Virus record (IMG/VR): IMGVR_UViG_3300021185_002348
Location: 3,918 to 67,917 of that record
Length of the DNA: 64,000 nucleotides
Direction: 5' to 3' (one strand)
Origin: a virus
Position numbers and translations under genes: made by a program. Each line of letters begins with the position of its first letter. Within the stretch, counting starts at the first letter, position 1. The notes beneath the pieces were generated by a model. That model ran no database searches. It saw only the letters and a program-made list of their open reading frames with translations, and had not been told where the DNA came from. This document shows, piece by piece, positions 1 to 53,632 of this stretch.

Positions 1-477
1 GAAATCAAGCAAGAGCTTGCAAACAAAAGAGCTGGTAAGAACTTTGCGTCTAGAAAGACCAATACGAAAAAGTTTGCCAAAAAACACAATCTTTATTTGC
101 CGTCAGGCGAAAAATCAATTTATGATGACAATATAGATTGGACAGCCGCTATCAAACAGAAGTATGACACTACCTTCGAGGTATGGTCGGATATTCATTG
201 GAAGAGTAAGAAAGTAAGTACTCGCAATCTGAAAGATATGACAGACGAAGAGTATAAGTCGTACAAAAATGCGGCCAGTAGAAAATGCAGATTTAATGCA
301 CAATTGAAAATCACGGGTGTAAGTTTAGACGACTTTCTTACTCACATATGTGTTAACGAAGCCAAATTTTTCTCAGACGAATATCAAGACGAACATAAAG
401 TTACAAAAGGTAACAAAGTGAGTGTTTACAATCTTGAATATTGGTTAGATACGATCATGGAAATCATGCCTGAATAA
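1..477 (+). CDS. Hypothetical early protein, 5'-truncated by the window edge
   Basis: Frame 1 is open from base 1 (EIKQELANKR...) into the 97..477 ORF, so the true start lies upstream of the window. Confidence 0.7.
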   Translation, partial: EIKQELANKRAGKNFASRKTNTKKFAKKHNLYLPSGEKSIYDDNIDWTAAIKQKYDTTFEVWSDIHWKSKKVSTRNLKDMTDEEYKSYKNAASRKCRFNAQLKITGVSLDDFLTHICVNEAKFFSDEYQDEHKVTKGNKVSVYNLEYWLDTIMEIMPE

Positions 478-492
478 ACACAGTTTCACTAT

Positions 493-523
493 CACGACTG
501 GGAATAACTCTCAGTCGTGTTTA
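493..523 (+). terminator. Hairpin, possible intrinsic terminator
   Basis: CACGACTGGGA-ATAAC-TCTCAGTCGTG 11-bp stem followed by a short T run. Confidence 0.55.
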
Positions 524-560
524 TAAGTCCAAATTAATCACAAACAGTAATATCAAAAAG

Positions 561-1067
561 ATGGAAAAAACAGTTAAAAATTGCACAATTTGCAATCAAG
601 TCGGCCAAAGCCGATGTCCAGAACACGTAGTTGTAGATCATTTCGACCAAAAATTCCACGAGTGGATGTCTTCAGACAATGTAATTAAGCTTGATTCGGA
701 CCAATATACTACACAGTGTACTCAATACACTTGGAAAATGACACAGAATGAACTCGCAAGTTATTTCTACAAAGAATATTATCGGTTAGACTTCCCAGAC
801 AAAGAAGTTCTATTGACTATTCGTCCAGAAAAAATTACGATTAAAAATATATCAACTGGAGAAACAGAAGAAGTAGAATCAGACGGAGGACTCACATCTA
901 TAACTACAGAGGTAGACGAATTCAACAGAAGAGTGGATGAAGATGCCAGAGAGAGTTTATACAATCAATATATACAGGAATATTCTTACGTAGGGGATTT
1001 ACCTATATCGGATGATATGAAACAGAGAATCATAACAGATATGATCGATTGTACGTTACACAGTTAA
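561..1067 (+). CDS. Hypothetical early protein with N-terminal CxxC...CxxH
   Basis: 168-aa ORF, A-rich leader, co-oriented with neighbours. Confidence 0.7.
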   Translation: MEKTVKNCTICNQVGQSRCPEHVVVDHFDQKFHEWMSSDNVIKLDSDQYTTQCTQYTWKMTQNELASYFYKEYYRLDFPDKEVLLTIRPEKITIKNISTGETEEVESDGGLTSITTEVDEFNRRVDEDARESLYNQYIQEYSYVGDLPISDDMKQRIITDMIDCTLHS

Positions 1068-1100
1068 ATTTTAAACAAACATTTTAAACAAACAGAAATT

Positions 1101-1505
1101 ATGTCAGTAAGTATTACATGCGACAATTGTCACAACTTTCTTGGCTACGGCCGAGAACTACCAATAGATGTTCACTGCAGCGAATGCGGTGAGAATACAT
1201 ACAACGATTACGGTTATACGGATGAAGACGAAGGAATCGATAAAGAGGAAGATACAGTTTCACTATCACAACCTGAACCTGCACCGATACACTACATTCC
1301 GAATATGAAAAAACTGCAGATGATCAAGCAGATTTTAAACATGCGGAAAATTAATCTTGAAGCAGATATATACGTCAGTGGAGCATTTCCCGATCTTGTA
1401 GATGAATTAGAAGTCCGGAAAGAACTGTTAGATTATATAAATGTATTAATCGACATCGAACAAGACTATCCGATATTAGGCATACAGAAACTAAACAATA
1501 ATTAA
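1101..1505 (+). CDS. Zinc-ribbon hypothetical protein
   Basis: CDNC...CSEC near the N-terminus. Confidence 0.7.
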   Translation: MSVSITCDNCHNFLGYGRELPIDVHCSECGENTYNDYGYTDEDEGIDKEEDTVSLSQPEPAPIHYIPNMKKLQMIKQILNMRKINLEADIYVSGAFPDLVDELEVRKELLDYINVLIDIEQDYPILGIQKLNNN

Positions 1506-1519
1506 AAAACGATCGAAAA

Positions 1520-1831
1520 ATGGATTTAAATACAATCGAAAAGCAATTGACGGACAAGTCAATCGGAGACATCAGAAAGTGTGCACAAGAAATAGTTAAC
1601 GTATTGAAAGCTTTCTCCGAAGATAAAACAGGCAAAATCAGAAACGGAATACATTGGCCGGTAAACCGCGATTATAATAGTAGAACTGATAGTTACACAT
1701 ACCAATATAGTCATTTGGATTATCATAGATTAGAAAAAATCATTATTGAATCTATACAAAATGATCTGTTGGATGATATAGTCAAAAAGAAAACTACAGA
1801 TTTATTATCAAAGTTAGAGCTATTAGATTAA
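1520..1831 (+). CDS. Hypothetical protein
   Basis: 103-aa ORF followed by a terminator. Confidence 0.7.
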   Translation: MDLNTIEKQLTDKSIGDIRKCAQEIVNVLKAFSEDKTGKIRNGIHWPVNRDYNSRTDSYTYQYSHLDYHRLEKIIIESIQNDLLDDIVKKKTTDLLSKLELLD

Positions 1832-1835
1832 TATT

Positions 1836-1864
1836 AAAAGGCTGATTAAGTTCAGTCTTTTTTT
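1836..1864 (+). terminator. Intrinsic terminator
   Basis: AAAAGGCTGA-TTAAGT-TCAGTCTTTT followed by a T tract. Confidence 0.75.
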
Positions 1865-1925
1865 ATCACAGTCTCGCTATCACAGTCAAAATTTTAGCTG
1901 AGAATTGATCAATTATGACTTAGCT

Positions 1926-1987
1926 AAGTAACTGTATAAATCGGGGAAATTTTAAAATTTTTTTTATTATTTTTATTTATAATTAAT
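1926..1987 (+). promoter_or_regulatory. Early promoter/regulatory element, copy 1
   Basis: AAGTAACTGTATAAATCGGGGA is 20/22 identical to 3502-3523; TATAATTAAT starts 52 bp after the start of both copies. Confidence 0.6.
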
Positions 1988-1998
1988 TAATCACAGAC

Positions 1999-2262
1999 AT
2001 GAAACAAACAGAAATTACCATCCCGAAGTGTTGCGCATCTTGCAAAAAGCTCATCCATCCTTTACGGTTAAAAGTATTACCGCATGCAAATACATGCGTA
2101 AATTGTAGCACGGCTAAACCAGTCGGTTGTGTTCCAATCAACAGCCACAAGACTGGCAATACAATTCAAATATTACCGCATGATATGGCGGCCAGCATGA
2201 ACAAAAATTGCGCACGTTCAGGCTATGGTATCACCCGATCATTACGTGGTAAAAACGGTTAA
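1999..2262 (+). CDS. TraR/DksA-type C4 zinc-finger protein
   Basis: CxxC-x-I-x-P-x-RL-x-x-LP-x-x-x-x-CVNC pattern. Confidence 0.65.
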   Translation: MKQTEITIPKCCASCKKLIHPLRLKVLPHANTCVNCSTAKPVGCVPINSHKTGNTIQILPHDMAASMNKNCARSGYGITRSLRGKNG

Positions 2263-2281
2263 ACTTAAACAATTAGAAATT

Positions 2282-2584
2282 ATGCCAAAACAAAAAACTT
2301 ACAACACACTCGGAATTTTCCTATTAGAAGATTATATGGGAAGCAAACGCAGTTTAATACTACGACTGAATGAAACAAGCGGTTTTATATCATACGTAAT
2401 GTATCAAGGCCATGGAAGCTCAGGCGTAGGTCATTCACTCAGTGGTCTACAGTGTAAAAGTCTACCGTATGAAAAAATATCAGACGACGAAACTATAGAA
2501 GAATTCAAAGCCCGGGTTGCTATCGCAATCCAAGAAGATTCAGTCTTCAAATTTATCAGAGAACGTAAAACAGTTAAATTTTAA
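2282..2584 (+). CDS. Hypothetical protein
   Basis: Track ORF 2225..2584; ATG at 2282 preferred because it avoids overlap and has an A-rich leader. Confidence 0.6.
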   Translation: MPKQKTYNTLGIFLLEDYMGSKRSLILRLNETSGFISYVMYQGHGSSGVGHSLSGLQCKSLPYEKISDDETIEEFKARVAIAIQEDSVFKFIRERKTVKF

Positions 2585-2588
2585 TCAA

Positions 2589-3245
2589 ATGCAAAAGTCA
2601 GTTAAATTAAATCAAAGAGAAGCTACAAACCAAAAGTACTTCAATTCGCAAAAACGATTAGTAAGTCTACTACGTAAAAATACATATGTATATCGCGAGG
2701 AGCTTGAAACAGTTAAAAACATCGGTCAGATACCATGGATGTTTATGATTAACTGCTTGACAGCCAAGCAAGTAGACAACTCGCCTAGCCAAGGCAGAAA
2801 TAAATTAAAGTATTGTTGGAACGGAACTACACCGTCTGTTAAAATTACAGAAGGAATGATACGGGCAATGAGAGCGAACAAAGAAAACCAAACAGTTAAA
2901 CAACCAGAAATTAAAAAGCCAACGAGCATGAAAGAAGTCGCGATCGAAGAACAACAAGCAGCCAACTATGAGCAGCAATTTGAAGAATTAAAGTCGGAAA
3001 TACATGCATTGCGAAATACAGCAAATGGAAACACACTTAATATTACCGACCTTTGGCAATTCGCATACGAACTTGAAGCAACTATTGAAGACAATGATAA
3101 AACTAAACCGTCGTTGCTATCACGCATAAAGTTCCCAGTCCAACGCTTTTGGAACGAAAAACCTTCATTCAGATACTTTGTATATTATTCACTAGCGTGG
3201 ATTACGATCAGTTCTGCAGTATTAATTTATTTTAACAGATTGTAA
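2589..3245 (+). CDS. Hypothetical coiled-coil protein with C-terminal membrane anchor
   Basis: ATG at 2589 follows the upstream stop; hydrophobic tail YFVYYSLAWITISSAVLIYF. Confidence 0.65.
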   Translation: MQKSVKLNQREATNQKYFNSQKRLVSLLRKNTYVYREELETVKNIGQIPWMFMINCLTAKQVDNSPSQGRNKLKYCWNGTTPSVKITEGMIRAMRANKENQTVKQPEIKKPTSMKEVAIEEQQAANYEQQFEELKSEIHALRNTANGNTLNITDLWQFAYELEATIEDNDKTKPSLLSRIKFPVQRFWNEKPSFRYFVYYSLAWITISSAVLIYFNRL

Positions 3246-3246
3246 G

Positions 3247-3462
3247 ATGAATAAGGACACTCAACTACAACTTACGGAGCTACACATGGCTCAAATCAAA
3301 GCCCTGCAGAATAAATGTACGGAGCTACAGTCGAAAATTGATCAAGTAGCAATTTTAATAGACCGTTCTAAACTATATAAACCACGTACAAGAGAGCAGT
3401 CTAGCGATATTCTTACCGATATATTTTATAGCTGGAAAGAAATATATGAGACTAACGATTGA
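3247..3462 (+). CDS. Hypothetical protein
   Basis: 71-aa ORF closely following the upstream gene. Confidence 0.55.
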   Translation: MNKDTQLQLTELHMAQIKALQNKCTELQSKIDQVAILIDRSKLYKPRTREQSSDILTDIFYSWKEIYETND

Positions 3463-3501
3463 AATAAACATGCGAAATATTGTTAATAAATTGACGCGGC
3501 A

Positions 3502-3563
3502 AAGTAACTGTACTAATCGGGGATTTTTATTAACATTATTTTGTATATTTATATATAATTAAT
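3502..3563 (+). promoter_or_regulatory. Early promoter/regulatory element, copy 2
   Basis: AAGTAACTGTACTAATCGGGGA, then TATATTTA at 3544-3551 and TATAATTAAT at 3554-3563. Confidence 0.6.
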
Positions 3564-3582
3564 AACCACAGAAAACAAACAA

Positions 3583-4422
3583 ATGGAAACACAATCCTAT
3601 TTAAACGTTAGCAACGCTAATTCAATCGAGCAGTTATATACTGTGGGTGGTCGTGCAGACTACCAATCAAAGAAAGAATATCTTATAAAGAAACGTGCGT
3701 CAAAACGCTATCACGACCTGCTTAAAGCAGCCAAAAAAGCGAACATTACGGCCTCGCAATATGCAATTAACAACCACGATTGCACAATTGACGAATACTG
3801 TGGCTCAGAATATATTCAGTCAAAAGTATTTCAAGGCTTTTCACCCAGCTTGACTAACGATCAAATTAAAATACTTAAGAAAGTCAACAGCCAAGTATCA
3901 AACAGTTTGCCGTTTTACATGAAAATGAAGCACATGCATGTAATTATACAAGCAGCTTTATACAATTGTACCGATACGCCTTATTCAAGTATATATTATA
4001 AAACAGCGGATATGTCAAGCCGCAGAGACGTTTACGAATCTAACAAAGTTAAGTCCTTGGTTTGCAATAAAGTAGGCACGGAAAATTACTTCAACAATTT
4101 ATATTACTGCATTAGCAACGATAAATATGTCAACATAGTAGACTACATATCTAAGCATATAGAATTTACCGCAGCTACTATCACAGAAATGATCAACAAT
4201 GAGAATGTGGTAATTGACTTTAACGAGCCAAACTACAAAAAGCTTACTGACCGTAAATTTACATACGCTGAAATATTTAACAACGTATTTACTGTTGACG
4301 ACAACACAAGCGAAAGCTTATTCCAAAATAACTACCTGTATAACACGGCAGTTGATAAAACATATGAATACTTTAATGGCTTGGAAGTGCCAGCAAACTT
4401 CTACAATTCAATTAATTATTAA
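3583..4422 (+). CDS. Divergent amidoligase-like protein
   Basis: HDCTI..GSEY, KHMHV and KYVN..HIEF align in order with DGSI.GAEY, GVHVHI and RY..LN..TIEFR of ORF 5614. Confidence 0.5.
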   Translation: METQSYLNVSNANSIEQLYTVGGRADYQSKKEYLIKKRASKRYHDLLKAAKKANITASQYAINNHDCTIDEYCGSEYIQSKVFQGFSPSLTNDQIKILKKVNSQVSNSLPFYMKMKHMHVIIQAALYNCTDTPYSSIYYKTADMSSRRDVYESNKVKSLVCNKVGTENYFNNLYYCISNDKYVNIVDYISKHIEFTAATITEMINNENVVIDFNEPNYKKLTDRKFTYAEIFNNVFTVDDNTSESLFQNNYLYNTAVDKTYEYFNGLEVPANFYNSINY

Positions 4423-4443
4423 CCAACATAAAAAAACAGAACT

Positions 4444-5433
4444 ATGTGTGGATTAATCGGTTACTCGGGCGAACAATCGCCAAACTTATTTTACTTAAAT
4501 TTCATTTTAGCGGATAATGATTCGCGTGGCGGTCACTCGTCGGGTATAATGATCGGCAATCATACTGAGAAATGCATCGGTAAAAGTGCCAATCTTCTTC
4601 CTATAATGAATAAATTTCAAACAAATCAACAGTTTGTCGCTATCGCACATACGCGTTACGCAACCCACGGCAAGCAAACAGCTAATAACAGTCATCCTTT
4701 TAAATACGGAAAGATTATTGGCGCTCACAACGGTGTATTAAGCAATTATGAAGAAGTGTGTGAAACATACAATCTTAAAACGCCTGATGTGGATTCTAAA
4801 GCTATATTCTCTTTGCTTAATTCAAAGAAAGATTATACTATGCTTGATCGCTTTGACGGCACTATGGCTGTATTATTTACCGACGGTGACGACAATCTTT
4901 ATGTCTACCGTAAAAACAATCCTTTATTTATTGCAAAAGTAGATGGCGGTGTGTATTTCTCATCCCTTCGAGCATCATTAGATATTATATCGGATGATGT
5001 ATCTGAAGTTGCTACTGGCGAATTACAATGCTGGCATAAAGGCAAGTGTATATCTACTGTTAAAATTACTCCCAATCCGATCGCTGCAAAAAAAGTTGTC
5101 AATACAGATTGGTCAGCTTACGGTAAAACGACTAAATCAACTAAAAGTTATAACCACTGGGGTTCGTATGGCTGGGATGATTACAGTACAAAACAAACGC
5201 CAACTACTAATACATATGATATAAACCAATATACATCAGAGCCCGGCACTCGCGGTGAAATATTAGATATGGCTGATTGTATTGACGATGTTGTATGGGA
5301 AGACAGAAACATACTGTCTAACGAACAGACTAAGCTACTAGAAAAAGCAGCCGATATATTACGCTATGATGTTACAAGCTTCTATAAAGAAATATTAGAA
5401 GATGAAGTAGACGACCAAACATTACCATTTTAA
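4444..5433 (+). CDS. Class II glutamine amidotransferase (Ntn hydrolase)
   Basis: MCGLIG N-terminal Cys, RGxxSSG, HTRYATHG, NSHPF, HNG, VDS. Confidence 0.93.
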   Translation: MCGLIGYSGEQSPNLFYLNFILADNDSRGGHSSGIMIGNHTEKCIGKSANLLPIMNKFQTNQQFVAIAHTRYATHGKQTANNSHPFKYGKIIGAHNGVLSNYEEVCETYNLKTPDVDSKAIFSLLNSKKDYTMLDRFDGTMAVLFTDGDDNLYVYRKNNPLFIAKVDGGVYFSSLRASLDIISDDVSEVATGELQCWHKGKCISTVKITPNPIAAKKVVNTDWSAYGKTTKSTKSYNHWGSYGWDDYSTKQTPTTNTYDINQYTSEPGTRGEILDMADCIDDVVWEDRNILSNEQTKLLEKAADILRYDVTSFYKEILEDEVDDQTLPF

Positions 5434-5443
5434 TAAACAGACC

Positions 5444-5617
5444 ATGAAAACAAACTATTCAAAACTGCTTAATAATATATTATTGGAAGCAGACAGTCAA
5501 TTTGTAATTGATTTAGAAAAATCATTTGATACTTTACGCGAACGTAAAGATGTTGACGGCAAACTTATATCAGAAATGATCAACTGTATTAACCAACTTA
5601 AAAAATTCATACAATGA
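5444..5617 (+). CDS. Small hypothetical protein (57 aa, not in ORF track)
   Basis: MKTNYSKLL...KKFIQ; stop overlaps the ATG of 5614 (ATGA). Confidence 0.6.
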   Translation: MKTNYSKLLNNILLEADSQFVIDLEKSFDTLRERKDVDGKLISEMINCINQLKKFIQ

Positions 5618-7380
5618 GCAATTTGACCCAACCTATAAGTTTGCAAGCATTTGCAGACAAAATGCGTGACGCAATAAATATCGCTAGCGAGGCTGATGAA
5701 AATATACGGCTAGATCATTACGTTGCTATCGCACAGGATATTACTTCTTTAATAAACAGTCGATTTGAAACACGTAATACAAGCTTCCATGTTGAAGATG
5801 AATCACGGATAATTAACCGCCGTACGTATAATTCGTTGTTATCCGCTATATATAGTATACGTAGATTATTAGACAGAGCATCAACAAATGACGATAATCT
5901 TGCTAATATATACAAGCAGCTTACTATACCGATCGTTTCTGATAAAGAAGAAGACGAGTTTAAATTTGAACAAGTCAAAATATGTGGCGGATTAACTTCT
6001 ACATTTTATACAAATGGCTATATACTTTCAGAAGATGAATTTGAAAAAGTAGGTTCTGATTGCACACGCTTTTTTCACAGAGATTCAGAATACGCCGATT
6101 ACGCATATTGTGAAGACTTAGACGAATATCATCTTGCTGAAGATACAATGTATTTAGAATTATATGACCACTATGTACATTATCAAAATTCTGATATAGT
6201 TGAAACGCACGACGGACAACAAATATACCAGAATGACGCAGTAATGGTACACGACCGCAACTTTGATGAAGTTTACATTCATGAAGACACCGATCATATA
6301 TATACAAACGACTATAGATATTTAAACGAAGAAGCTGCCGAGGCAAACGGCTGTTGGTATGACGACAATTATGATGAATGGCGTGAAGATCACGAAAGAA
6401 CCGACGATCTGTACTTTAGCAATCCTTTTGCTGCGTCAGAAATGCGCAGATATAAACAATCGCTATCACAAATAGAATATACAGCTCTTGAACATACTCT
6501 AGGTATTACCTCTATAACAAACAGGCAATTCAACGGTATGAAATACACGTTTGGCGTTGAAATCGAAACGCATAACATCAGTAATAATTTTGATGCCGCA
6601 AGTCTAAAGTTAAACGTAGCATCTGTAAGCGATGGTTCAATAAGCGGTGCCGAATATGTTACCGGTCCTATGACTGGCGATACCGGCCTGAACAACGTCA
6701 AATCGCTATGCAAAACATTAAACGCAAAAGGCGCCACCATAAATAACAAATGCGGTGTTCATGTACATATTGGCGGTGCGCAATTTAATCGCCGATTTCA
6801 AATACTGTCTATAATGTTAGGTATGCAAATTCAAGATGAAATGTTTGCCATGCAGCCTGAATCACGCCAAAGTAATACTTACTGCAAAGGTATTCCAGAG
6901 AAATATTTAATGCTAAAGAATTGCTTTAAGCTTGACAACAACAATCGTAAACAATCTTTAAAGTATTTGCATGAATATGTAACAAATAGCTCACGCGAGT
7001 TTAATCAAGACCGCAATAAAAAACGATCGCATCCTAACGGTCACTATTGCAGCTCTCGTTATAAATGGCTAAACTTAAACAATTGTGCTTTTTCTAGCGG
7101 CCCTGAAACTATTGAATTTCGCTTACAAAGTGGTACAACAGAATTTGACAAAATTAAATACTTTGTGCAAATTTGTATGGCCTTTGTTAATTTTGTAGAA
7201 AATAAAAGTCGTAGAATACACATCGGCTTACAACACCATTATGACTACAAAAAGCGTAACACAATGGTTTTAGGCAATTCAGTATCACTGCGAGAAGTAA
7301 TTGAATATTCATATTCAACCGATCAAGCAACTGAAATTATTAATTATGTTAAATTGCGTACCGATAAATTCCTAAAATAA
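5614..7380 (+). CDS. Putative amidoligase (COOH-NH2 ligase) with acidic/aromatic N-terminal region
   Basis: FGVEIE, DGS..GAEYV, CGVHVHIG, RYKWLN, TIEFR motifs. Confidence 0.9.
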   Translation: MSNLTQPISLQAFADKMRDAINIASEADENIRLDHYVAIAQDITSLINSRFETRNTSFHVEDESRIINRRTYNSLLSAIYSIRRLLDRASTNDDNLANIYKQLTIPIVSDKEEDEFKFEQVKICGGLTSTFYTNGYILSEDEFEKVGSDCTRFFHRDSEYADYAYCEDLDEYHLAEDTMYLELYDHYVHYQNSDIVETHDGQQIYQNDAVMVHDRNFDEVYIHEDTDHIYTNDYRYLNEEAAEANGCWYDDNYDEWREDHERTDDLYFSNPFAASEMRRYKQSLSQIEYTALEHTLGITSITNRQFNGMKYTFGVEIETHNISNNFDAASLKLNVASVSDGSISGAEYVTGPMTGDTGLNNVKSLCKTLNAKGATINNKCGVHVHIGGAQFNRRFQILSIMLGMQIQDEMFAMQPESRQSNTYCKGIPEKYLMLKNCFKLDNNNRKQSLKYLHEYVTNSSREFNQDRNKKRSHPNGHYCSSRYKWLNLNNCAFSSGPETIEFRLQSGTTEFDKIKYFVQICMAFVNFVENKSRRIHIGLQHHYDYKKRNTMVLGNSVSLREVIEYSYSTDQATEIINYVKLRTDKFLK

Positions 7381-7526
7381 TGAACAGCTGTCTTGCTTGG
7401 CTCATTATACTTATTACATGCATTGGCTTCTTATACGTCTGCGCTATCGCAGGTCGTATAATGCCAGTCATTGCAGGTTATTTTATTATATTAGCAATCA
7501 TTTCTAATCCTCACAAAGAACAATGA
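7380..7526 (+). CDS. Small two-helix membrane protein (48 aa, not in ORF track)
   Basis: MNSCLAWLIILITCIGFLYVCAIAGRIMPVIAGYFIILAIIS...; translationally coupled at both ends. Confidence 0.6.
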   Translation: MNSCLAWLIILITCIGFLYVCAIAGRIMPVIAGYFIILAIISNPHKEQ

Positions 7527-8341
7527 CAAACTACGAAAAAGAATATTCTGAACTATTACGTGATATATTGCGTAAGCCTGAAGTACCTTATAAAGACAAC
7601 CGCACTGAATCACGGACTATGATGTCTTTTGGTAAAAGCATTACTGCCAACTTGGCTGAAGGCTTTCCCGTATTATCAGGCAGAAAAATGTTTCCAAAAA
7701 CTTTCTTCACCGAGCTTAAATGGTTCACTAATGGCGAAACAAACATACAAAGGTTTAAAGACGCTGGTGTTAAGATATGGAACAAATGGGCTGATAAAAA
7801 CGGCGACTTAGGTCCTGTGTATGGTCATCAACTTCGTAATTTTAACGGAAATGATCAATTACTTAATGTTTTAACCTTATTAAGCACAGACCCAACTAGC
7901 AGGCGTATGGTTGTAAACTTATGGAACCCGTCTGATTTGCCTGACATGGCTTTACCGCCTTGCTATCACACATTCACTTTCTCAGTTGTAAATGATCGGC
8001 TGAATATTGATGTAACAATGCGATCATGCGATGTATTTGTAGGTTTGCCTTACGATATGGCTATGTTTTCAGCTATGAACCACTTGATGTGCGAAGGCTT
8101 TAACTTATCTCCGGGTAAAGTTCGAATAAATATGACAGATGCTCATGTCTATTGGGATAACGTTTCGTCTGCTAATGCTTATATAGAATCAATTGACTTA
8201 GCTATACATACAAAACTTAAGTTTGATATACCTAAGCTATATGTTAAAAACCGTAAAAACATTCTAAACTTTGAACCAGAAGATTTAGAACTTAAAAATT
8301 ACTCTCCAAACAGTCATATTAAAGTCGAAGTTGTACTTTAA
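7523..8341 (+). CDS. thyA: Thymidylate synthase-family enzyme with dCMP-type specificity residues
   Basis: DLGPVYG, SRR, ALPPC, RSCD and HVY motifs; Asp at the E. coli Asn177 position (GLPYD). Confidence 0.9.
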   Translation: MTNYEKEYSELLRDILRKPEVPYKDNRTESRTMMSFGKSITANLAEGFPVLSGRKMFPKTFFTELKWFTNGETNIQRFKDAGVKIWNKWADKNGDLGPVYGHQLRNFNGNDQLLNVLTLLSTDPTSRRMVVNLWNPSDLPDMALPPCYHTFTFSVVNDRLNIDVTMRSCDVFVGLPYDMAMFSAMNHLMCEGFNLSPGKVRINMTDAHVYWDNVSSANAYIESIDLAIHTKLKFDIPKLYVKNRKNILNFEPEDLELKNYSPNSHIKVEVVL

Positions 8342-8346
8342 TTTGC

Positions 8347-8354
8347 TATATTTG
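8347..8354 (+). promoter_or_regulatory. Bacteroidota sigma70 -7 element TATATTTG
   Basis: Matches TAnnTTTG; intergenic. Confidence 0.65.
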
Positions 8355-8359
8355 TAAAT

Positions 8360-8425
8360 ATATGTTTTGAAATAGCCGGTAATAGGGTTTCTGTTTGTCC
8401 CGTGGTTAGTTACCGGTTATTTTTT
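8360..8425 (+). ncRNA. Candidate small RNA or terminator-like leader hairpin
   Basis: 13-bp stem 8370-8382/8410-8422, inner GGG/CCC hairpin, T tract; immediately downstream of a promoter motif. Confidence 0.45.
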
Positions 8426-8453
8426 ACTTTAATAAAATTTAATCAACATAACT

Positions 8454-8738
8454 ATGTCAAAAAAATCACTGCTTCAAATTGCGGATGAAATTACTTCAAA
8501 CAAAAGTACAGAAAAGAACAAATACGGCTCTTTTCAACAAAACTTCGAAGACTCCGCCACTATCGCAAGCATACTTACCAACAAAAATATAACGCCAGAT
8601 ATTGCAAATGCAGTATTAATTGGCCTTAAAATTGCTCGATTAAGAAACGGCTACCACGAAGACAGCTTTCTTGATCTACATGCATATATAGCAGCCTTCG
8701 AAATTAATAACCCAAAGTCAAATAAAAACAAAATCTAA
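8454..8738 (+). CDS. DUF6378/Nmad1-like small helical protein
   Basis: YG....NF...A......LK.AR......DS..D...Y pattern. Confidence 0.7.
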   Translation: MSKKSLLQIADEITSNKSTEKNKYGSFQQNFEDSATIASILTNKNITPDIANAVLIGLKIARLRNGYHEDSFLDLHAYIAAFEINNPKSNKNKI

Positions 8739-9007
8739 TGGACGTAAAAATCAAAAAGTTTAAAGACCGAATACCCGGTCAGCAAAAATCAAAGCAAGAC
8801 TATACAAACCGTGTAGTAATATTTGAAGACATAACAGGTAAAGAATGGATTTGTAATCTTGACAGTCGCACAGAGCAGACTAATTACATTGAAAATAATT
8901 TAACCATAGGTGCTTGCTTCGCTGGTTTTAGAAAGCAAAGTGAAACTCACGTAAAGTTAAAGTCGCCTATATCACTTATTTATAACCCTCAATTGAAGCT
9001 ACTATGA
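8738..9007 (+). CDS. Hypothetical protein
   Basis: 89-aa ORF, translationally coupled. Confidence 0.65.
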   Translation: MDVKIKKFKDRIPGQQKSKQDYTNRVVIFEDITGKEWICNLDSRTEQTNYIENNLTIGACFAGFRKQSETHVKLKSPISLIYNPQLKLL

Positions 9008-9357
9008 TAAACGAATTCAAGTACAACGAAAAAGTTAAAACTCCTTACGGTACGTTTTCTAGTTTAGATGTAGATGAAATAGGCGTAGCTCAGGATTATG
9101 ATGCAAGCTATTCTGATTTAGATGTATTTGCAATTATTGATGATACAGTTTATTTCTTTATTATGGCTATACCTACTGATTATAACATGGCCCATGTAGA
9201 CGAATGGGATTATGCACGGGAAAGCCATAGGACTTCAAAAATATTGTACGAAGACTTAACTACAGATCAATGGGTTAGAGAGTCAATTGACAACCTTGAC
9301 GTAATTGATTTACTATTAACTCACAAAAAAATACACACTCAAAAATTAGAACAGTAA
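9004..9357 (+). CDS. Hypothetical acidic protein
   Basis: 117-aa ORF, ATGA overlap. Confidence 0.65.
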   Translation: MINEFKYNEKVKTPYGTFSSLDVDEIGVAQDYDASYSDLDVFAIIDDTVYFFIMAIPTDYNMAHVDEWDYARESHRTSKILYEDLTTDQWVRESIDNLDVIDLLLTHKKIHTQKLEQ

Positions 9358-9482
9358 TGTGGAACTATATACTTAACTACGGCGAATCAGACTGCTGTGG
9401 AGCCCCTGTGTGGGAAAATCAAGACATCTGCCAAAAGTGCAAAGAGCACTGCGGTGTAATATATGAAGAAGACGAAGAATGA
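9357..9482 (+). CDS. Small zinc-ribbon protein (41 aa, not in ORF track)
   Basis: SDCCGAPV...DICQKCKEHC; coupled to both neighbours. Confidence 0.7.
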   Translation: MWNYILNYGESDCCGAPVWENQDICQKCKEHCGVIYEEDEE

Positions 9483-9913
9483 AATTTGCTAAAACAAAAA
9501 ATGTATTGACGCCTACGAGAGCAAACGCTAATGACGCAGGCATAGACTTTTATATACCCTGGGACCGCACGGCTGAATTAGTCTACCCAAATGATCAATG
9601 TATAATTGATACAGGTATTAAAGTAGATGTGCCACCAGGATACGCCTTAGTAGCTTTTAACAAGTCAGGAATAGCAACGAAGAAACGTTTATTAGTCGGT
9701 GCATGCGTAGTTGACGCAGGTTATCAAGGCACGATCAATATCAACCTTCATAATGTTGGCACAGAAAAGCAGTTGCTATCACCGGGAGATAAGATTATAC
9801 AATTTTTACTTTTGCCGCTTGGGCCATCGGAACTTACGGAGGTACCACAAGAAGATTTGTACACAAATGAATCTGACAGAGGCGAAGGCAAGTTTGGTAG
9901 CACAGGAAATTAA
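9479..9913 (+). CDS. dut: Trimeric dUTPase
   Basis: DAGIDF, KSG, VVDAGYQG, RGEGKFGSTG motifs. Confidence 0.95.
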   Translation: MKFAKTKNVLTPTRANANDAGIDFYIPWDRTAELVYPNDQCIIDTGIKVDVPPGYALVAFNKSGIATKKRLLVGACVVDAGYQGTININLHNVGTEKQLLSPGDKIIQFLLLPLGPSELTEVPQEDLYTNESDRGEGKFGSTGN

Positions 9914-9963
9914 AATTACTGTGAAATCAATTTTTTATTAACAACTTATTTAGTAAATTTACA

Positions 9964-10362
9964 ATGATTAAAGAAGACGAAACTTACAAGCACTACCAGA
10001 TAAGGCAATTTGAAAATAAAGTTATTGCTTTACAAACTGAGTTAGACGTTGTCGATGTAATTAAAGAACAAGTAGCCAATTATTTTAGATTAGCACCACA
10101 TAATCTAAGTAAGAAAACCAGATTAAGAACATATTTATGGCCAAGACAAATAGCTATATACTTCACAAGAGAATATACAACATTTACTTTAAAAGAAATA
10201 GCTAAAATGTTCGGGTTAGTAAACCATGCAACTATAATACATTCAGTTAAAGTTGTAGCAAACGACATGGCTCTTGACAAAAGAAAACAAAATCAATTAA
10301 ATCAAATCAAACTTAACCTACTAAAAAATGGAATCGAAGACAACCCAGCCGAAAGAGACTAA
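9964..10362 (+). CDS. Stand-alone DnaA domain IV (DNA-binding HTH) protein
   Basis: RQIAIYF.RE.T..TLKEIA.MFG..NHATIIHS signature. Confidence 0.85.
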   Translation: MIKEDETYKHYQIRQFENKVIALQTELDVVDVIKEQVANYFRLAPHNLSKKTRLRTYLWPRQIAIYFTREYTTFTLKEIAKMFGLVNHATIIHSVKVVANDMALDKRKQNQLNQIKLNLLKNGIEDNPAERD

Positions 10363-10765
10363 AAAAGACGCTTTACGAAGATTATTTTTAGACAATAATT
10401 TATCTGAAGACGACGTATACAAAGACAAACGTGGCTTTGTAATCATTACCAGATCGGGTATTGAGAAAATTCAGTTTAACAACAATATGAACATTGAATT
10501 TAAGTTAGAAATATCTAATGACGATTTAATAGTAGTTAAAGCTTGTGCCGAAATGCGCACGGGCGAAGGTCAAGCATTTAAAGTAGAAACTTATGGCGAA
10601 TGCAGCCCTAAAAACTATCAAAACTATACTTCTAAATTTGGTAGTTATCCTTTTGCTATGGCCGAAAAGCGAGCACTATCACGGGCCGTACTTAAACTTG
10701 CTGGTTTTTACAGACTAGGTGGTGTGTTTGGTGAAGGCGAAATTGATAACAGAAGCGATAAATAA
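10328..10765 (+). CDS. Putative ssDNA-annealing/recombination protein
   Basis: AMAEKRA.SRAVLK motif and position near the SSB-like gene. Confidence 0.5.
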   Translation: MESKTTQPKETKKDALRRLFLDNNLSEDDVYKDKRGFVIITRSGIEKIQFNNNMNIEFKLEISNDDLIVVKACAEMRTGEGQAFKVETYGECSPKNYQNYTSKFGSYPFAMAEKRALSRAVLKLAGFYRLGGVFGEGEIDNRSDK

Positions 10766-10768
10766 GCT

Positions 10769-11017
10769 ATGGAATTTGATTGGATAGACGAATTATTAGA
10801 TAATTCAGAAGCTGAAGCAGAAATGTGGCAATTAGATACTATTGACAATTTAATTAGATCAACATCTATAGGTGAACAATTGAGTCTAGTAATTGAAAGA
10901 GAGTCTATAAACTATACAAAGAAAGAAGCTTTTAAAATTATTTCATATTTGAAACGAAATCAAACTTATCCGGATTGCAGAGACAGATTTAAATTTTATA
11001 ACAACAAAAACAATTAA
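10769..11017 (+). CDS. Hypothetical protein
   Basis: 82-aa ORF in operon. Confidence 0.65.
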   Translation: MEFDWIDELLDNSEAEAEMWQLDTIDNLIRSTSIGEQLSLVIERESINYTKKEAFKIISYLKRNQTYPDCRDRFKFYNNKNN

Positions 11018-11019
11018 AA

Positions 11020-11373
11020 ATGAGCGAAACGCTAAAAACAGACGGTAAATTACTAGGAGTAAATGCTGTTGAACAAATTACAGACAAGTTTAAAAAACGT
11101 AAATTTTGGGTTGAAACAGACTCTGAGTCACAATGGCCACAAGTTATTGAATTTGAATTAGTTCAAGATAAAGTTGATCTAATTGATAAATTTAAGAAAG
11201 GTGACGTAATATCTGTTGGCTTTAATTTACGAGGTAGAAGATACACAAGCAAAAAAACAGGGCAAGAAGGTGTTATAAACTCTTTAAACGCCTGGTTTGT
11301 AGACAAGCCTAAGCCTCAAGCTGCTGGTTCAGTTGCTTCTGATACGTCAGATCCTAATGACTTACCATTTTAA
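11020..11373 (+). CDS. DUF3127 family OB-fold SSB-like protein
   Basis: FKKR, PQ.I.FEL.QDK, FNLRGR, NSL.AW and acidic DLPF tail. Confidence 0.85.
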   Translation: MSETLKTDGKLLGVNAVEQITDKFKKRKFWVETDSESQWPQVIEFELVQDKVDLIDKFKKGDVISVGFNLRGRRYTSKKTGQEGVINSLNAWFVDKPKPQAAGSVASDTSDPNDLPF

Positions 11374-11375
11374 TT

Positions 11376-11726
11376 ATGAGTAAGCCTAATGAAACAACAC
11401 ATATAGATTGGATTCAATCGTGTTACAGAGCCGATGCAGTTTATGAATACCCAAAGCTATCTATTGAAGAATGTGAAACAATGGAAGCATGGGTTATTGA
11501 AATGCTAGGCGTATATGAACCAGGCAATGAACAAGTTGATGTAGCAGAGCTGTTATGCAATATGATTAGCATATTTGCTAGTCGTAATCCTAAAGAACAG
11601 CAAGGCATTTTAATATCAGCTTTAAGAAAGTCTGCTGACATTCATGACGAACTTTGGGACTTTGAGAAAGGTAAATTGAAAAAAATTAATAAATTGCTTA
11701 ACTCAAAGAACAAAAAGAAAGATTAA
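11376..11726 (+). CDS. Hypothetical protein
   Basis: 116-aa ORF in operon. Confidence 0.65.
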   Translation: MSKPNETTHIDWIQSCYRADAVYEYPKLSIEECETMEAWVIEMLGVYEPGNEQVDVAELLCNMISIFASRNPKEQQGILISALRKSADIHDELWDFEKGKLKKINKLLNSKNKKKD

Positions 11727-11729
11727 TTT

Positions 11730-11795
11730 TAAATTGTGTCTGGCGAGAGCCGAAAGGAGGTATAAAAAGTTTATGCCAGTTCCTCCCACAATTTA
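11730..11795 (+). ncRNA. Candidate structured RNA (three-way junction, hammerhead-like)
   Basis: Closing stem TAAATTGTG/CACAATTTA enclosing two hairpins and a GAAA junction. Confidence 0.4.
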
Positions 11796-11811
11796 CTTAT
11801 AACCATTTATT

Positions 11812-12477
11812 ATGAAAACAGAAACGAACCAACCATCGTACTATGCTATTATACCTGCAATTGTACGGTACGATCCAAATCTATCTGCTTCTGAAAAATT
11901 ACTATTTGGAGAAATAACTTCCTTATGCAATGCAACTGGAGAATGTTTTGCTTCTAATAAATATTTTGCAAAGCTATACAAAAAAGACAAAGTTACTATC
12001 TCACGCTGGTTTGCTAAGCTTAAAGACGCTGGCTATATACATATAAACTATAAGTATGTACCTGAATCTCAAGCTATTGAATCAAGAATAGTTCACATAT
12101 CGCACCAAGTACCGGGCATTATTACCCCTGCTAGCAAAAATGCTAATAGGCCTACTAGCAAAAACGCTAAAGATAATATTATAAAAAATAATAATGCTCA
12201 AATGCTATTTGAAGCGTGGTGGAATCTATACAATAAAAAGCAAGGCAAGAAGAAATCTTTAACCGTTTGGATGAAGCTATCTGAAGATCAGATGAACAAA
12301 TGTATGTCCGTGGTTGAAGACTTTGTTAGATATAGAAATGAAGTTAAGTATAGGCCTCATCCTCTGACATATTTAAATGGTGAGATGTGGGAAGACGAAA
12401 TTCCTAATCAATCCATAAGTAAAGAGTGGAAGAAACAAGAAGCTACTGATAACTTTAATAACATGTTTGGAATATGA
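11812..12477 (+). CDS. Phage replication initiator/replisome organiser (N-terminal HTH)
   Basis: YYAIIPA.VRYD..L...EKLL.GEIT.L.N..G.CFASN.YFA.LY; C-terminal FE.WW..Y.KK..KK and P.TYLN...W.DE. Confidence 0.85.
   Translation: MKTETNQPSYYAIIPAIVRYDPNLSASEKLLFGEITSLCNATGECFASNKYFAKLYKKDKVTISRWFAKLKDAGYIHINYKYVPESQAIESRIVHISHQVPGIITPASKNANRPTSKNAKDNIIKNNNAQMLFEAWWNLYNKKQGKKKSLTVWMKLSEDQMNKCMSVVEDFVRYRNEVKYRPHPLTYLNGEMWEDEIPNQSISKEWKKQEATDNFNNMFGI
12127..12170 (+). repeat. Two iteron-like direct repeats inside the initiator gene (candidate origin)
   Basis: CCTRCTAGCAAAAAYGCTAA x2 at 24-bp period, followed by an AT-rich stretch. Confidence 0.6.
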
Positions 12478-14297
12478 AAAAAGTATCAATATACAATAAC
12501 ATCAGAAATATTAATGATGGTCATAACATAACTATAGCTACAGCGCTTGATAGGATCAAATCAGGCTCCTCTAAGAAGACTATAGAAGATATTAGAACTC
12601 ATCTATTAGAAGGTGATCAAGCAGCTGCTAAAAAGCTTAAAACGTTTAGTCTACCTTATGTATGTTTTTCAGGAACATTTAGTAAAAGAGATGACAATTC
12701 TATAATAGAGCACTCAGGGTTTGCAATTTTAGATTTTGATCATTTACCAGACAATATTATGCAGTCTTGTAAAGAAGTGTTAATGGGTTGCAATTTTATA
12801 TATTCATTTTGGGTTTCACCATCGGGTGACGGACTTAAAGTACTTGCAAAAATACCCGCTAGTATAGAAGAGCATAAAGATTATTATGTAGGCTTAGTTA
12901 AATATTTTGAAAGATTTGAAGGATATGTAGACGAAACAAGTATAAACTTAAGTCGTGCATGCTTTGAAAGCTACGATCCTGATATATACATTAATGAAGA
13001 CGCAGAAGAGTTTGTAGATAAGTACGTTGAAGAAAAAGCAACAGTTGCTATCACAAACACAATCATACGTACTGACTATGCAAAAGTAAACATAGCGGCT
13101 AATATTATACGCCATTCAATACCAGGCGAGATGCATGCAAAGCTTTTAGATGCATCTAATCTTATGGGTGGCTATATTGCTACAGGCATCGTTGGAGAGG
13201 AAGAAGCTAAAAGAATTTTGCTTGACGAGATTATAGCTAAAGGTAAGAAAGACGACGATCTAAAAGCAGCTGAAATTGCTATACAGAAGGGTATTGACTA
13301 CGGTAAGACAAGACCTTTGTCTGAATTAATAGCGGCTGTAAGCGAAGAAGAGATACTTGAAGGTATATTAACACTTGACAAAGTTAAAAGTCAAATGAAA
13401 TCTAATTTTGAATTTGGTTCAAAGAAAGGTGAAGATACCGGTATACCGCATGTAGACAAAGTATTTAAGTGGATGAAAGGCTTTACATATGTATTTGCTG
13501 GTTATGCAAACCACGGTAAAAGTGAGTTTCTTAACTACATTATGCTTATGAAGAGTTTAAAGTCTGGTTATAAATGGGCTGTATTTACGCCAGAGGGCCA
13601 TACTGCAGACACTTTTTATGACAATTTAATACATATGTATACAGGTCAGACAACTGATCATAGAAGCGACAATCAAGTATCTAAAGAAAGATATTGGGAA
13701 GCAGCTGAGTTTATTAAAAAGCATTTCTTTTACATATATCCTAAGAAAGAGCACTCTGCTGAAAACATAAATGCAATATTCAAATATTTAGTAGACCACG
13801 AAGGTGTAGATGGCTGTGTCATAGATCCATACAATCAATTGTCGTTTGATTCAACAGGTACTGAATACTTGCAGATAAGAAACTTCTTGCAAGCACAAAG
13901 AAGATTTTATATAGAAAATAATGTAGTAGGTGTAATTGTAGCTCACCCTAAAAATCCTAATCCAAACGATAATGGAAGCATAGATCCACCGCAAGTCTAC
14001 CAAATATCCGGTGGTGCTGAGTGGAATAACAAGTCAGATGTTATTATGACATACCATAGACCTAACTTCTATGTAGACATCGGCGACACTTCTTGCATAT
14101 TCGGCACTAAGAAAATGAAGCGTCAAAAAGATATGGCCTTGCCCGGAGATATAGATATGAAGTTTGATCGGCGAACTAATAGATTCTTATTTTTCGATCC
14201 TTCAGTATCACAATCTTTTATAGATTACATAGAAGTACATCATCAGTCAAACAATAAAGTAAAACCAAACAATAACCTAGAAAATTTATTCGGATGA
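12474..14297 (+). CDS. Primase-helicase: BT4734/VirE-N AEP-type domain fused to SF4 (DnaB/Twinkle-like) helicase
   Basis: LP...FSGTF..R, HSG...LDFD, SPSGDGLK; Walker A GYANHGKS, IDPYNQL, VAHP, ISG. Confidence 0.88.
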   Translation: MKKVSIYNNIRNINDGHNITIATALDRIKSGSSKKTIEDIRTHLLEGDQAAAKKLKTFSLPYVCFSGTFSKRDDNSIIEHSGFAILDFDHLPDNIMQSCKEVLMGCNFIYSFWVSPSGDGLKVLAKIPASIEEHKDYYVGLVKYFERFEGYVDETSINLSRACFESYDPDIYINEDAEEFVDKYVEEKATVAITNTIIRTDYAKVNIAANIIRHSIPGEMHAKLLDASNLMGGYIATGIVGEEEAKRILLDEIIAKGKKDDDLKAAEIAIQKGIDYGKTRPLSELIAAVSEEEILEGILTLDKVKSQMKSNFEFGSKKGEDTGIPHVDKVFKWMKGFTYVFAGYANHGKSEFLNYIMLMKSLKSGYKWAVFTPEGHTADTFYDNLIHMYTGQTTDHRSDNQVSKERYWEAAEFIKKHFFYIYPKKEHSAENINAIFKYLVDHEGVDGCVIDPYNQLSFDSTGTEYLQIRNFLQAQRRFYIENNVVGVIVAHPKNPNPNDNGSIDPPQVYQISGGAEWNNKSDVIMTYHRPNFYVDIGDTSCIFGTKKMKRQKDMALPGDIDMKFDRRTNRFLFFDPSVSQSFIDYIEVHHQSNNKVKPNNNLENLFG

Positions 14298-14701
14298 AAA
14301 AGAAAACAGAAAAAGAATTAGTATTTGTATACGGAACATTAATGGCTGGATACCACAACCATTACTATTTAGAAACATCTAAGTGGGTAGACTATGCAAA
14401 AACAGTTAAAGACTACTCATTATTTGAGTCAGGTATACCTTTTGTATATGAAGATTTAAACATTACCGCTATCACCGGCGAAGTATATGAAGTCAGTAAA
14501 AGTGTTATGTATTATTTAGATATGCTTGAAGGTCACCCGGATGCATACGAAAGAAAGCAAGTAGATGTAAAATTAGGTTTTACAAACGAAGTAGTAAAAG
14601 CATGGATATATTTCTATCCTAGAATAGTAGGTAATTTAATTGAATCAGGAAACTATGAAGAAGCTTATCCGAGACGCAAAAATAAAATATCAAATTTGTA
14701 A
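14294..14701 (+). CDS. Gamma-glutamylcyclotransferase (AIG2-like)
   Basis: VFVYGTL..G..NH, GEVYEV, LD.LEG.P..Y.R, AWIY. Confidence 0.92.
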   Translation: MKKKTEKELVFVYGTLMAGYHNHYYLETSKWVDYAKTVKDYSLFESGIPFVYEDLNITAITGEVYEVSKSVMYYLDMLEGHPDAYERKQVDVKLGFTNEVVKAWIYFYPRIVGNLIESGNYEEAYPRRKNKISNL

Positions 14702-14927
14702 TTTAGTTAGACATAAAGCCAGCGGTATAATGAAGCCTTCTTCTGTCAAAAAAAGTGGTACTATTGAAAAAATAACTACAGCCGCTAATATAGAAGAAGC
14801 TAATAAGAATGGACATATAATAGCTGGCATTGCTAAAAAACACAATAAAAAGAGAGATGAAGTAGAAATTAAAATACTTTCTATTACATTTGGTAATTAT
14901 GAACACTGGAGCCACGACGTGCATTAA
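14655..14927 (+). CDS. Hypothetical basic protein
   Basis: Track ORF 14640..14927; first ATG at 14655; start uncertain. Confidence 0.5.
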   Translation: MKKLIRDAKIKYQICNLVRHKASGIMKPSSVKKSGTIEKITTAANIEEANKNGHIIAGIAKKHNKKRDEVEIKILSITFGNYEHWSHDVH

Positions 14928-14933
14928 ACAGAT

Positions 14934-15200
14934 ATGAACAAACTAGAAGAAGATCAAATAAATTTATTATTATTTTTAGCTACATTTAAAAGCTTTAGCG
15001 AACAAATGTTCAATTTAAAAGGCGTTCACAAAGGTATAGCCAAGAAAAAGTTTAACTTGCTTATAAACACAGTTAACAGCTATGAGCGAACTTTAGACAA
15101 AGGTTGGCTTAAGGATAATAAAAAAGTTATAGATGAACTAAACGACTCTATAACTGACATGGTTTACATGATAAGAGAACAAGTACATAAAACTAATTAA
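14934..15200 (+). CDS. Hypothetical protein
   Basis: 88-aa ORF with AAACAGA leader. Confidence 0.65.
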   Translation: MNKLEEDQINLLLFLATFKSFSEQMFNLKGVHKGIAKKKFNLLINTVNSYERTLDKGWLKDNKKVIDELNDSITDMVYMIREQVHKTN

Positions 15201-49109: not shown

Positions 49110-49131
49110 AATTTTTTTTTAAATATACAAA

Positions 49132-51526: not shown

Positions 51527-51529
51527 AGC

Positions 51530-52860: not shown

Positions 52861-52862
52861 GA

Positions 52863-53126: not shown

Positions 53127-53129
53127 AAC

Positions 53130-53273: not shown

Positions 53274-53274
53274 T

Positions 53275-53628: not shown

Positions 53629-53632
53629 GTTG

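Follow-up and report, generated by a model that had tools for sequence, protein, structure and literature searches.

Gene arms and a polar nine-base word

The window analyzed here, a stretch of 64,000 nucleotides (nt), comprises bases 3918–67917 of the 67,917-base virus record IMGVR_UViG_3300021185_002348, which is rated complete. Its left arm is strewn with copies of the nine-base word YRCTATCRC, which we read as probable sites of single-strand nicking. Genes run rightward to about window 16.8 kb and leftward beyond. The left, early arm encodes a glutamine amidotransferase, an amidoligase, a ThyA-like enzyme, a dUTPase, a stand-alone DnaA domain IV protein, a replication initiator, a BT4734-type primase fused to an SF4 helicase, a GGACT protein, and a DUF1064 protein, and the right arm encodes a terminase, a portal protein, an 1848-amino acid (aa) protein with crAss muzzle domains, and a 3113-aa protein. 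By terminase, the nearest named phages are MW202828.1 (46% identity), the Flavobacterium Elemoviruses (40%), and Cellulophaga podophages. The left arm is contained in 24 public runs, and the phage lineage was found in runs of 20 studies.

An exact count on both strands of the window gives 21 copies of YRCTATCRC on the + strand and none on the − strand, which confirms both the number and the positions given in the initial annotation. Shuffled versions of the window that preserve dinucleotides hold 2.63 copies on average over both strands and 7 at most, and 21 was reached in none of 100. In the whole 67.9-kb genome, there are 28 copies on the + strand and 2 on the − strand. The 3.9 kb to the left of the window contribute seven of the + copies (genome 1028, 1547, 2123, 2643, 3046, 3537, and 3593) as well as the sole two − copies (genome 2609 and 3521). 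A motif-blind word count of the left 21 kb ranks the YRCTATCRC word family first, with CTATCAC at z = 15.0 (15 on +, 2 on −) and GCTATCAC at z = 18.9 (9 on +, 0 on −).

The enrichment is equally clear against a codon shuffle that retains every protein and its codon usage. The 36 + strand genes shuffled in this way (18,287 nt) would be expected to carry 0.89 ± 0.87 sense copies, with a maximum of 6; they carry 15, a number that 0 of 2000 shuffles reached. The 15 in-gene sites are spread over all three reading frames (two in frame 0, five in frame 1, and eight in frame 2), and other copies are intergenic, just as the initial annotation had described for unrelated genes. The sites at genome 1028 and 11359, nominally in frames 1 and 2, were left out of this tally because the open reading frames (ORFs) there are doubtful and both sites are read as intergenic. 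Within the first 18.4 kb of the genome lie 24 of the 28 + copies, on the sense strand of the early arm; the 47-kb late arm has only four, a number only mildly over the codon-shuffle null (1.20 expected; 18 of 1000 shuffles reach 4). YRCTATCRC is thus a strand-specific signal at the level of nucleic acid, laid over unrelated coding sequence and concentrated in the left arm. The extended consensus proposed earlier, t-YRCTATCRC-r, also holds: T precedes the word (position −1) in 21 of 28 copies, and T at position +10 occurs in none.

The sites are also evenly set. From the left, successive spacings are 519, 576, 520, 403, 491, 56, 811, 774, 614, 643, 597, 591, 470, and 462 nt, and beyond the first 15 sites the spacing rises to about 1 kb, then to 1.4–2.4 kb, 4 kb, and 14–16 kb. 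For the first 15 sites the mean spacing is 538 nt with a coefficient of variation of 0.32, an evenness matched by about 1 in 100,000 random placements. The quasi-periodicity noted in the initial annotation is therefore borne out.

Related phages show the same polarity. Nine metagenome contigs represent close kin, with primases 81–96% identical and DNA 70–82% identical, and their 42 kb contain 19 + copies and no − copy. Individual sites are kept, lost, or moved. The copy at window 13046–13054 (+, TGCTATCAC), in the primase/helicase gene, is retained in 4 of 4 relatives. The copy at 14467–14475 (+, CGCTATCAC), in the GGACT gene, is present in five of the eight relatives tabulated and lost in three; a copy at position 5048 of relative L096 also maps there, making six relatives that retain the site, one with the copy shifted by 2 nt. 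Relative L093 retains the sites at 8558, 9774, and 10674, and L096 retains the last of these. In L095, all three are lost and new copies lie 27 nt and 262 nt off, the former being 27 nt downstream of the place of 8558. Two copies in relative L097 keep the + orientation. Because relatives keep, lose, and regain copies nearby, the sites are under selection, with the exact place free to move.

Farther out, the word fades. Distant kin (47 loci, 807 kb, about 35% primase identity) hold 21 copies on the + strand and 15 on the − strand, which is background. Such distant kin, at 31–36% identity, were all that a profile scan of viral contigs returned; a megablast search of the left arm against a phage collection and a single-protein scan of viral contigs gave no match. 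The restriction of the word to one clade fits a phage-encoded enzyme that evolves along with its sites. When TATCAC was also counted, in distant-kin loci of at least 8 kb, only locus L039 stood out in either of the two counts. Other strand-biased words found in several distant loci, CGACATC and CTACGAC, were set aside, as they look like codon pairs and have no extended context.

Two other genomes have words of their own. In G001, the record behind L039 (reverse strand, 34752–62607), GTATCAC is found 13 times on one strand and 0 times on the other, with about 3.4 copies expected; eight of the 13 cluster in a 3.3-kb stretch close to where the early arm starts. GTATCAC shares the T/ATCAC half with YRCTATCRC, but, as a word chosen after the fact, it is only suggestive of a polar signal. 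Near-copies of the form YRGTATCAC occur three times in the genome studied here, all on the + strand (genome 6143, 11197, and 18120). In MW202828.1 (loci L009 and L010, positions 43746–55155), the palindrome TGTCGTTAACGACA occurs 14 times in the early arm, each time with asymmetric flanks. By the coding sequence table, several copies sit in short gaps directly upstream of genes, and the copies are spaced 270–640 nt apart at the start of the arm and more widely later.

Contig ends at the word and the individual sites

Two viral-metagenome DNA runs (X4 and X6) and two RNA-library runs (X3 and X20), all as contigs, were compared with window 1–15000; the figures below rest on the boundaries listed, namely 26 inner boundaries and 12 loose ends for DNA and 31 ends for the RNA libraries. 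Six of the 26 inner DNA boundaries fall exactly between bases 4 and 5 of the word (YRCT/ATCRC, hereafter T4/A5), where by our own arithmetic (17 sites in 15,000 positions) about 0.03 would be expected by chance. Five are from X6: a contig end at 2521 and a start at 2522, both in the copy at 2518–2526 (+, TGCTATCGC); an end at 7964 in the copy at 7961–7969 (+, TGCTATCAC); a start at 8562 in the copy at 8558–8566 (+, CACTATCGC); and an end at 10677 in the copy at 10674–10682 (+, CACTATCAC). The sixth is from X4, a contig end at 3709 in the copy at 3706–3714 (+, CGCTATCAC). Including the copy at 4176–4184 (+, TACTATCAC), where X4 has a loose end behind 4179, base 4 of the word, 6 of the 17 sites in window 1–15000 show a contig break or a tailed end. 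A relative offers a further case: its independent metagenome contig L097 begins ATCAC at the position homologous to window 13046, the offset being taken from a BLAST alignment.

The two X4 ends carry extra letters. Past 3709, the contig reads CCTC and then Illumina adapter letters, and the loose end behind 4179 reads TCCTTCTCTCCT, C and T only. Among the 12 loose ends listed for DNA, these two alone are made of tail or adapter letters, both at base 4 of the motif. Because these letters follow + strand sequence, the free 3′ end at T4 belongs to the + strand, whatever the kit used. Pyrimidine-rich tails are a mark of the Adaptase kit, which we take to have been used here, and the X4 tail fits an Adaptase tail. 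A tail of this kind, added to a 3′ end, would imply a 3′-OH at the break. Short low-complexity tails before the adapter in Adaptase single-strand libraries are mentioned in PMC6511391.

At the remaining sites, the cut is predicted by position. From the left of the window, the copy at 487–495 (+, CACTATCAC) is intergenic and followed by a hairpin, with a predicted nick after base 490; that at 1261–1269 (+, CACTATCAC) lies in a gene in frame 1 (predicted nick after 1264); that at 1875–1883 (+, CGCTATCAC) is intergenic (after 1878); and that at 3115–3123 (+, TGCTATCAC) again lies in a gene in frame 1 (after 3118). The glutamine amidotransferase gene holds the copy at 4638–4646 (+, CGCTATCGC; predicted nick after 4641), and the amidoligase gene holds those at 5724–5732 (+, TGCTATCGC; after 5727) and 6461–6469 (+, CGCTATCAC; after 6464). 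The copy at 7442–7450 (+, CGCTATCGC; after 7445) lies between the amidoligase and ThyA-like genes, and that at 9774–9782 (+, TGCTATCAC) lies in the dUTPase gene. The four late-arm copies are antisense to the genes they occupy: 18482–18490, 32299–32307, and 48254–48262 (all +, TACTATCGC), the second of them inside the gene for the 1848-aa muzzle-like protein, and 62394–62402 (+, CGCTATCGC).

The copy at 7961 encodes C-Y-H in the ThyA-like protein (window 7523–8341, +), and, in agreement with the initial annotation, this Cys matches the catalytic one of thymidylate synthases with solved structures. Aligned without gaps, the protein has PPC-Y-H where the solved enzymes have PPC-H-x. The Tyr that follows the catalytic Cys is encoded by the core of the nick word, and the word may have been imposed here at the cost of a conserved His.

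Several features of the far left end accompany the word. The leftmost intergenic copies (genome 1028–1071, 1547–1589, and 2123–2165 and window 487–530, each given with what follows it) begin 1–9 nt after stop codons. Behind them lies a conserved cassette of about 34 nt with two interleaved stems, whose pairing is held by compensatory changes (ACAC/GTGT versus GCAC/GTGC; GCGG/CCGC, GGGAC/GTCCC, and GGGG/CCCC) and which is followed by a T-run in 2 of 3 cases; the cassette looks like a terminator or a pseudoknot. The two − copies, at genome 2609 and 3521, are both CACTATCAC and lie within a 20-nt direct repeat that begins GTGATAGTGAT. Each opposes a + copy, at 34 nt (genome 2601–2651) and 16 nt (genome 3513–3545), respectively, in long AT-rich intergenic regions right behind terminator-like hairpins. 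If both strands were nicked at these inverted pairs, some 41 and 23 bp would separate the cuts, and staggered double-strand ends could result; the pairs are possibly the physical termini of the genome.

Two further observations concern the small early genes. In both virome runs, a contig swaps 575 bases of window 908–1484 for 146 other letters, a strain variant in which most of one small early gene is replaced or missing, and with it the copy of the word at 1261. The word CGTAAGAC occurs five times on the + strand and not on the − strand of the left 21 kb, between genome 1094 and 4394; its copies sit in longer direct repeats (beginning AGTCGTAAGAC) within several small early ORFs, which are maybe paralogues.

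Probable nick sites, known systems, and rival explanations

The best account of these data is that YRCTATCRC marks sites of nicking and that the + strand in virions is a series of pieces, which we consider probable. Site-specific single-strand nicks, to which the contig data point, lie outside the options of the initial annotation. Its description of the word as a strand-specific left-arm signal at the nucleic acid level stands, and none of the four mechanisms it named is supported. Under the nick-site interpretation, a site-specific nicking activity would recognize 5′-YRCT/ATCRC-3′ and cut the + strand only, between bases 4 and 5. The packaged DNA would then contain about 28 single-strand interruptions, set some 540 nt apart through the first 8.5 kb and thinning rightward, so that pieces would be about 0.5 kb long at the left and longer to the right. 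By analogy with phage tf, the interruptions would be ligatable nicks with 3′-OH and 5′-P ends, and by analogy with tf and phikF77, a phage-encoded enzyme would make them late in infection and they would be sealed after entry.

The closest precedent is the LUZ24 group, here as described in PMC3517423 and PMC11780129. The Pseudomonas putida phage tf has 14 nicks, all in the top strand at 5′-TACT/RTGMC-3′, which T4 ligase seals and which are denser in the early left half of the genome; tf also carries amidoligase and glutamine amidotransferase genes (PMC3517423). The main LUZ24/PaP3 nick site is TACTATGAC, and LUZ24, PaP3, and MR299-2 have 8–9 copies of this type on one strand at similar relative places (PMC3517423). 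In phage Rembedalsseter, 13 strand-specific drops in coverage fall at WACTRTGAC with no modification signal at the motif, and WACTRTGAC is enriched in sixty related phages, with 88% of copies in coding sequence (PMC11780129). In the LUZ24 record itself, we counted TACTRTGMC nine times on the top strand (1918, 3341, 5336, 6451, 8416, 13276, 20773, 25349, and 29861) and not at all on the bottom strand, the copies thinning from the left.

The likenesses to this type begin with the word. In both, it is asymmetric, nine bases long, and confined to one strand, with a cut after base 4 that was mapped in tf and is proposed here from contigs. TACTATGAC fits YRCTATCRC at 8 of 9 positions and is one base away from TACTATCAC of the phage studied here. 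The genes of both genomes form two convergent arms, and the word follows the early-sense strand, mostly in genes and more densely in the early left half; sites lie at similar places among relatives; and genes for a glutamine amidotransferase, an amidoligase, and a GGACT protein are present in both. These three are the only matches to LUZ24 (gp19, gp18, and gp22, respectively) in a tblastn search of 77 ORFs, and no kinship is detectable beyond them. The word studied here differs in having C rather than G at position 7 and in being looser at positions 1, 2, and 8. There are 28 copies compared with 9–14, their left-end spacing is an even ~540 nt compared with 1–2 kb in LUZ24, and two − copies oppose + copies. 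The phage, moreover, is an uncultured marine podophage with Flavobacterium and Cellulophaga terminase kin and a crAss-type muzzle domain.

Other nick systems are more remote. T5 and BF23, like the nicks proposed here, have one-strand interruptions at fixed places in virion DNA whose function is unexplained. Their word, 5′-R/GCGCRGG-3′, is unrelated, and it also occurs on the un-nicked strand, with five major and many minor nicks in T5 (PMC3517423); in the phage studied here, the word alone predicts the strand. Phages of the phiKMV type likewise have nicks that a motif directs to a single strand and that are mended early in infection and made anew late. Their word, 5′-CGACxxxxxCCTA/CTCCGG-3′, is longer and unrelated, and its few sites lie on the non-coding strand (PMC3517423).

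Several points weigh against nicking in virions. The evidence for breaks comes from assembled contigs, which cannot show true starts and ends, rather than from raw reads or gels, and only 6 of 17 sites show a break. X4 contigs span the sites at 1875, 2518, 3115, 6461, 7442, 7961, and 8558, and X6 contigs span those at 3706, 4176, 4638, and 5724; such contigs are expected if only one strand, or only part of the molecules, is cut. The start of one X4 piece, at 10674, falls on base 1 of the motif and not on base 5. The assignment of the X4 tail to Adaptase is our own reading, the library type not being on record. The likeness to TACTRTGMC could stem from convergence, as only 3 of 77 ORFs match LUZ24 and none of these is a nuclease. 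Finally, no fitting nickase family was found among 53 ORFs searched against Pfam and 19 against PHROGs, and the ends left by an enzymatic nick would look no different from those left at a modified, chemically labile base.

With regard to the enzyme, the only nuclease-like matches in these searches are the DUF1064 protein, with a weak match to endonuclease I, and a "DNA repair exonuclease," neither of which is shared with LUZ24. A tblastn search of the 77 ORFs against LUZ24, G001, MW202828, and elemoF found no shared nuclease; DUF1064 was considered in this role and rejected, being found only in the Elemovirus record. A 356-aa ORF common only to the phage and G001 belongs to no family, and an Atlas search with it gave only viral hypothetical clusters.

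Among the alternatives, the one that survives best holds that breaks arise at a site-specifically modified, chemically or enzymatically labile base during extraction or library preparation, the virion DNA itself not being nicked. Contig ends cannot tell a nick from a labile site, and the genes of the left arm (glutamine amidotransferase, amidoligase, ThyA-like enzyme, and dUTPase within window 4444–8341 and beyond, GGACT at 14294–14701, all +) suggest a pathway of nucleotide or base modification. We take this gene set to recall base-hypermodification pathways, and its amidotransferase, amidoligase, and GGACT members are the very genes held in common with nick-bearing LUZ24. The sealing of tf interruptions by T4 DNA ligase, however, marks them as clean nicks (PMC3517423), the Rembedalsseter motif is free of a modification signal (PMC11780129), and nothing indicates a modified base in the phage studied here. 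We therefore regard a labile base as unlikely.

One option of the initial annotation is that the copies bind the stand-alone DnaA domain IV protein; on this reading, the protein would coat or regulate the early arm. The gene is real: the ORF at window 9964–10362 matches Pfam Bac_DnaA_C (PF08299) at E = 1.2e-19 over positions 1–68 of 69, a full-length domain. Both YRCTATCRC and the DnaA box, TTATCCACA, are 9-mers with a TATC..CAC core, and TATCAC(A) resembles the box, but our word is one base shorter in the core. Gene and word do not go together from one phage to the next. G001 (GTATCAC 13/0) and LUZ24 (TACTRTGMC 9/0) lack PF08299, whereas the family occurs twice in MW202828, where YRCTATCRC is at background (6 versus 1 per strand in 60.9 kb) and the enriched word is another, palindromic one. 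Binding would also leave the free 3′ ends inside the word unexplained, and we judge this role quite improbable.

A role in transcription or RNA, whether as promoters of a phage or virion RNA polymerase, as boxA-like antitermination sites (an option of the initial annotation), or as processing sites of early transcripts, has similarly little to recommend it. It would suit the placement of 24 of 28 + copies on the early-arm sense strand and the position of the copies at genome 1028, 1547, and 2123 and window 487 right after stop codons and before hairpins with compensatory changes. The CACTATA core of T7-type promoters also looks, by eye, like YRCTATCRC. Against these stand the 15 copies inside genes in three frames, the lack of any copy on either strand of about 70 Bacteroidota ribosomal RNA (rRNA) leaders and spacers, and the late-arm copies of the window, which keep the + orientation and are antisense to their genes; the two L097 copies are also on +. 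None of the 31 listed contig ends of the RNA libraries X3 and X20 falls at the motif, and both libraries cover the arm, a coverage that is no proof of transcription. A virion RNA polymerase was sought in the 3113-aa ORF (window 19010–28351, −) and the idea rejected, the ORF having neither a DFDxD-type motif nor a Pfam family. At its place, relatives have ORFs of about 3700–3860 aa that are annotated as structural proteins. Early transcripts of phi14:2 have no common upstream motif, according to bioRxiv 10.1101/2020.03.07.982082.

Host-type Chi- or KOPS-like sites, which would protect or orient the entering DNA end via AddAB/RecBCD or an FtsK-like translocase, were the first two options of the initial annotation. 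They, too, are short, oriented, over-represented words read as DNA, and a single orientation with density falling with distance from one end is what they would predict. Such words are host-encoded and enriched on host chromosomes, however, whereas YRCTATCRC is specific to one phage clade. Five Flavobacteriaceae chromosomes (two Flagellimonas, one Myroides, one Wocania, and one uncultured member, reached via 16S loci; the true host of the phage may differ) hold, per ~4 Mb, 63–88 forward copies and 55–72 reverse ones, and a reversed-word control gives the same level (69–84 and 53–80). The word is at background in kin of about 35% primase identity, which would meet the same host machinery, and resection to a site 1 kb inside would presumably already destroy early genes. 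We hold these options to be very improbable.

That the word marks where the BT4734-type primase-SF4 helicase starts lagging-strand primers on the + strand is hardly credible, despite a spacing of Okazaki-fragment size (0.5–1 kb) and a word on one strand, as 4 copies are too few to prime replication of the 47-kb late arm, known primase sites are about 3 nt long, and priming sites would leave no + strand 3′ ends in virion DNA.

Possible role and meaning of the site array

What nicks at YRCTATCRC would be for is the weakest step of the interpretation. T5 has been known since the 1960s to carry nicks at fixed places in its DNA. What such nicks are for is still called unknown, and the nickase of the LUZ24 group is not identified, in the sections of PMC3517423 and PMC11780129 available to us. 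In the phage studied here, lost sites are replaced nearby and the spacing is regular, so that the distance from nick to nick, and not the exact place, looks to be selected. Selection on distance would favor a mechanical over a gene-specific role. We suggest, tentatively, that nicks relieve bending or torsional stress of the left arm while the DNA is packaged or ejected or early genes are transcribed. Use of the 3′ ends for priming or recombination seems less likely, as does escape from host defenses.

A bolder and more doubtful proposal is that a single nicking system reading TACT/AT.AC-type words is common to the Pseudomonas Bruynogheviruses and the marine Bacteroidota podophages and travels with the amidotransferase-amidoligase-GGACT trio. 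The early sense strand would then be perforated at an even pitch of ~540 nt, and the nicks would be no by-product but a selected mechanical feature that lets a rotationally clamped arm swivel or hinge as it is packaged, ejected, or transcribed. As rough geometry, not computed, a length of ~540 nt would make approximately a single turn in the outermost DNA spool of a capsid of such size. The occurrence of a near-identical word in otherwise unrelated genomes narrows the search for the enzyme to what the LUZ24 group and the clade studied here share, and if the system is indeed shared, the comparison across phyla would be the first handle on the identity of the nickase.

There is also a practical side. 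Nick motifs would break virome assemblies and leave adapter-tailed contig ends, so that nicked phages may be findable in public data. No paper joining nicks with Cellulophaga was found; the wider literature search was unselective, and hence we make no claim on Flavobacterium phages. The site array described here is the densest and most regular among the nick systems compared, and its even spacing and replaced sites may serve as evidence on what such nicks do. It would be the first nick-site case found outside phages of Proteobacteria, placing this feature of virion DNA in an abundant, uncultured marine lineage.

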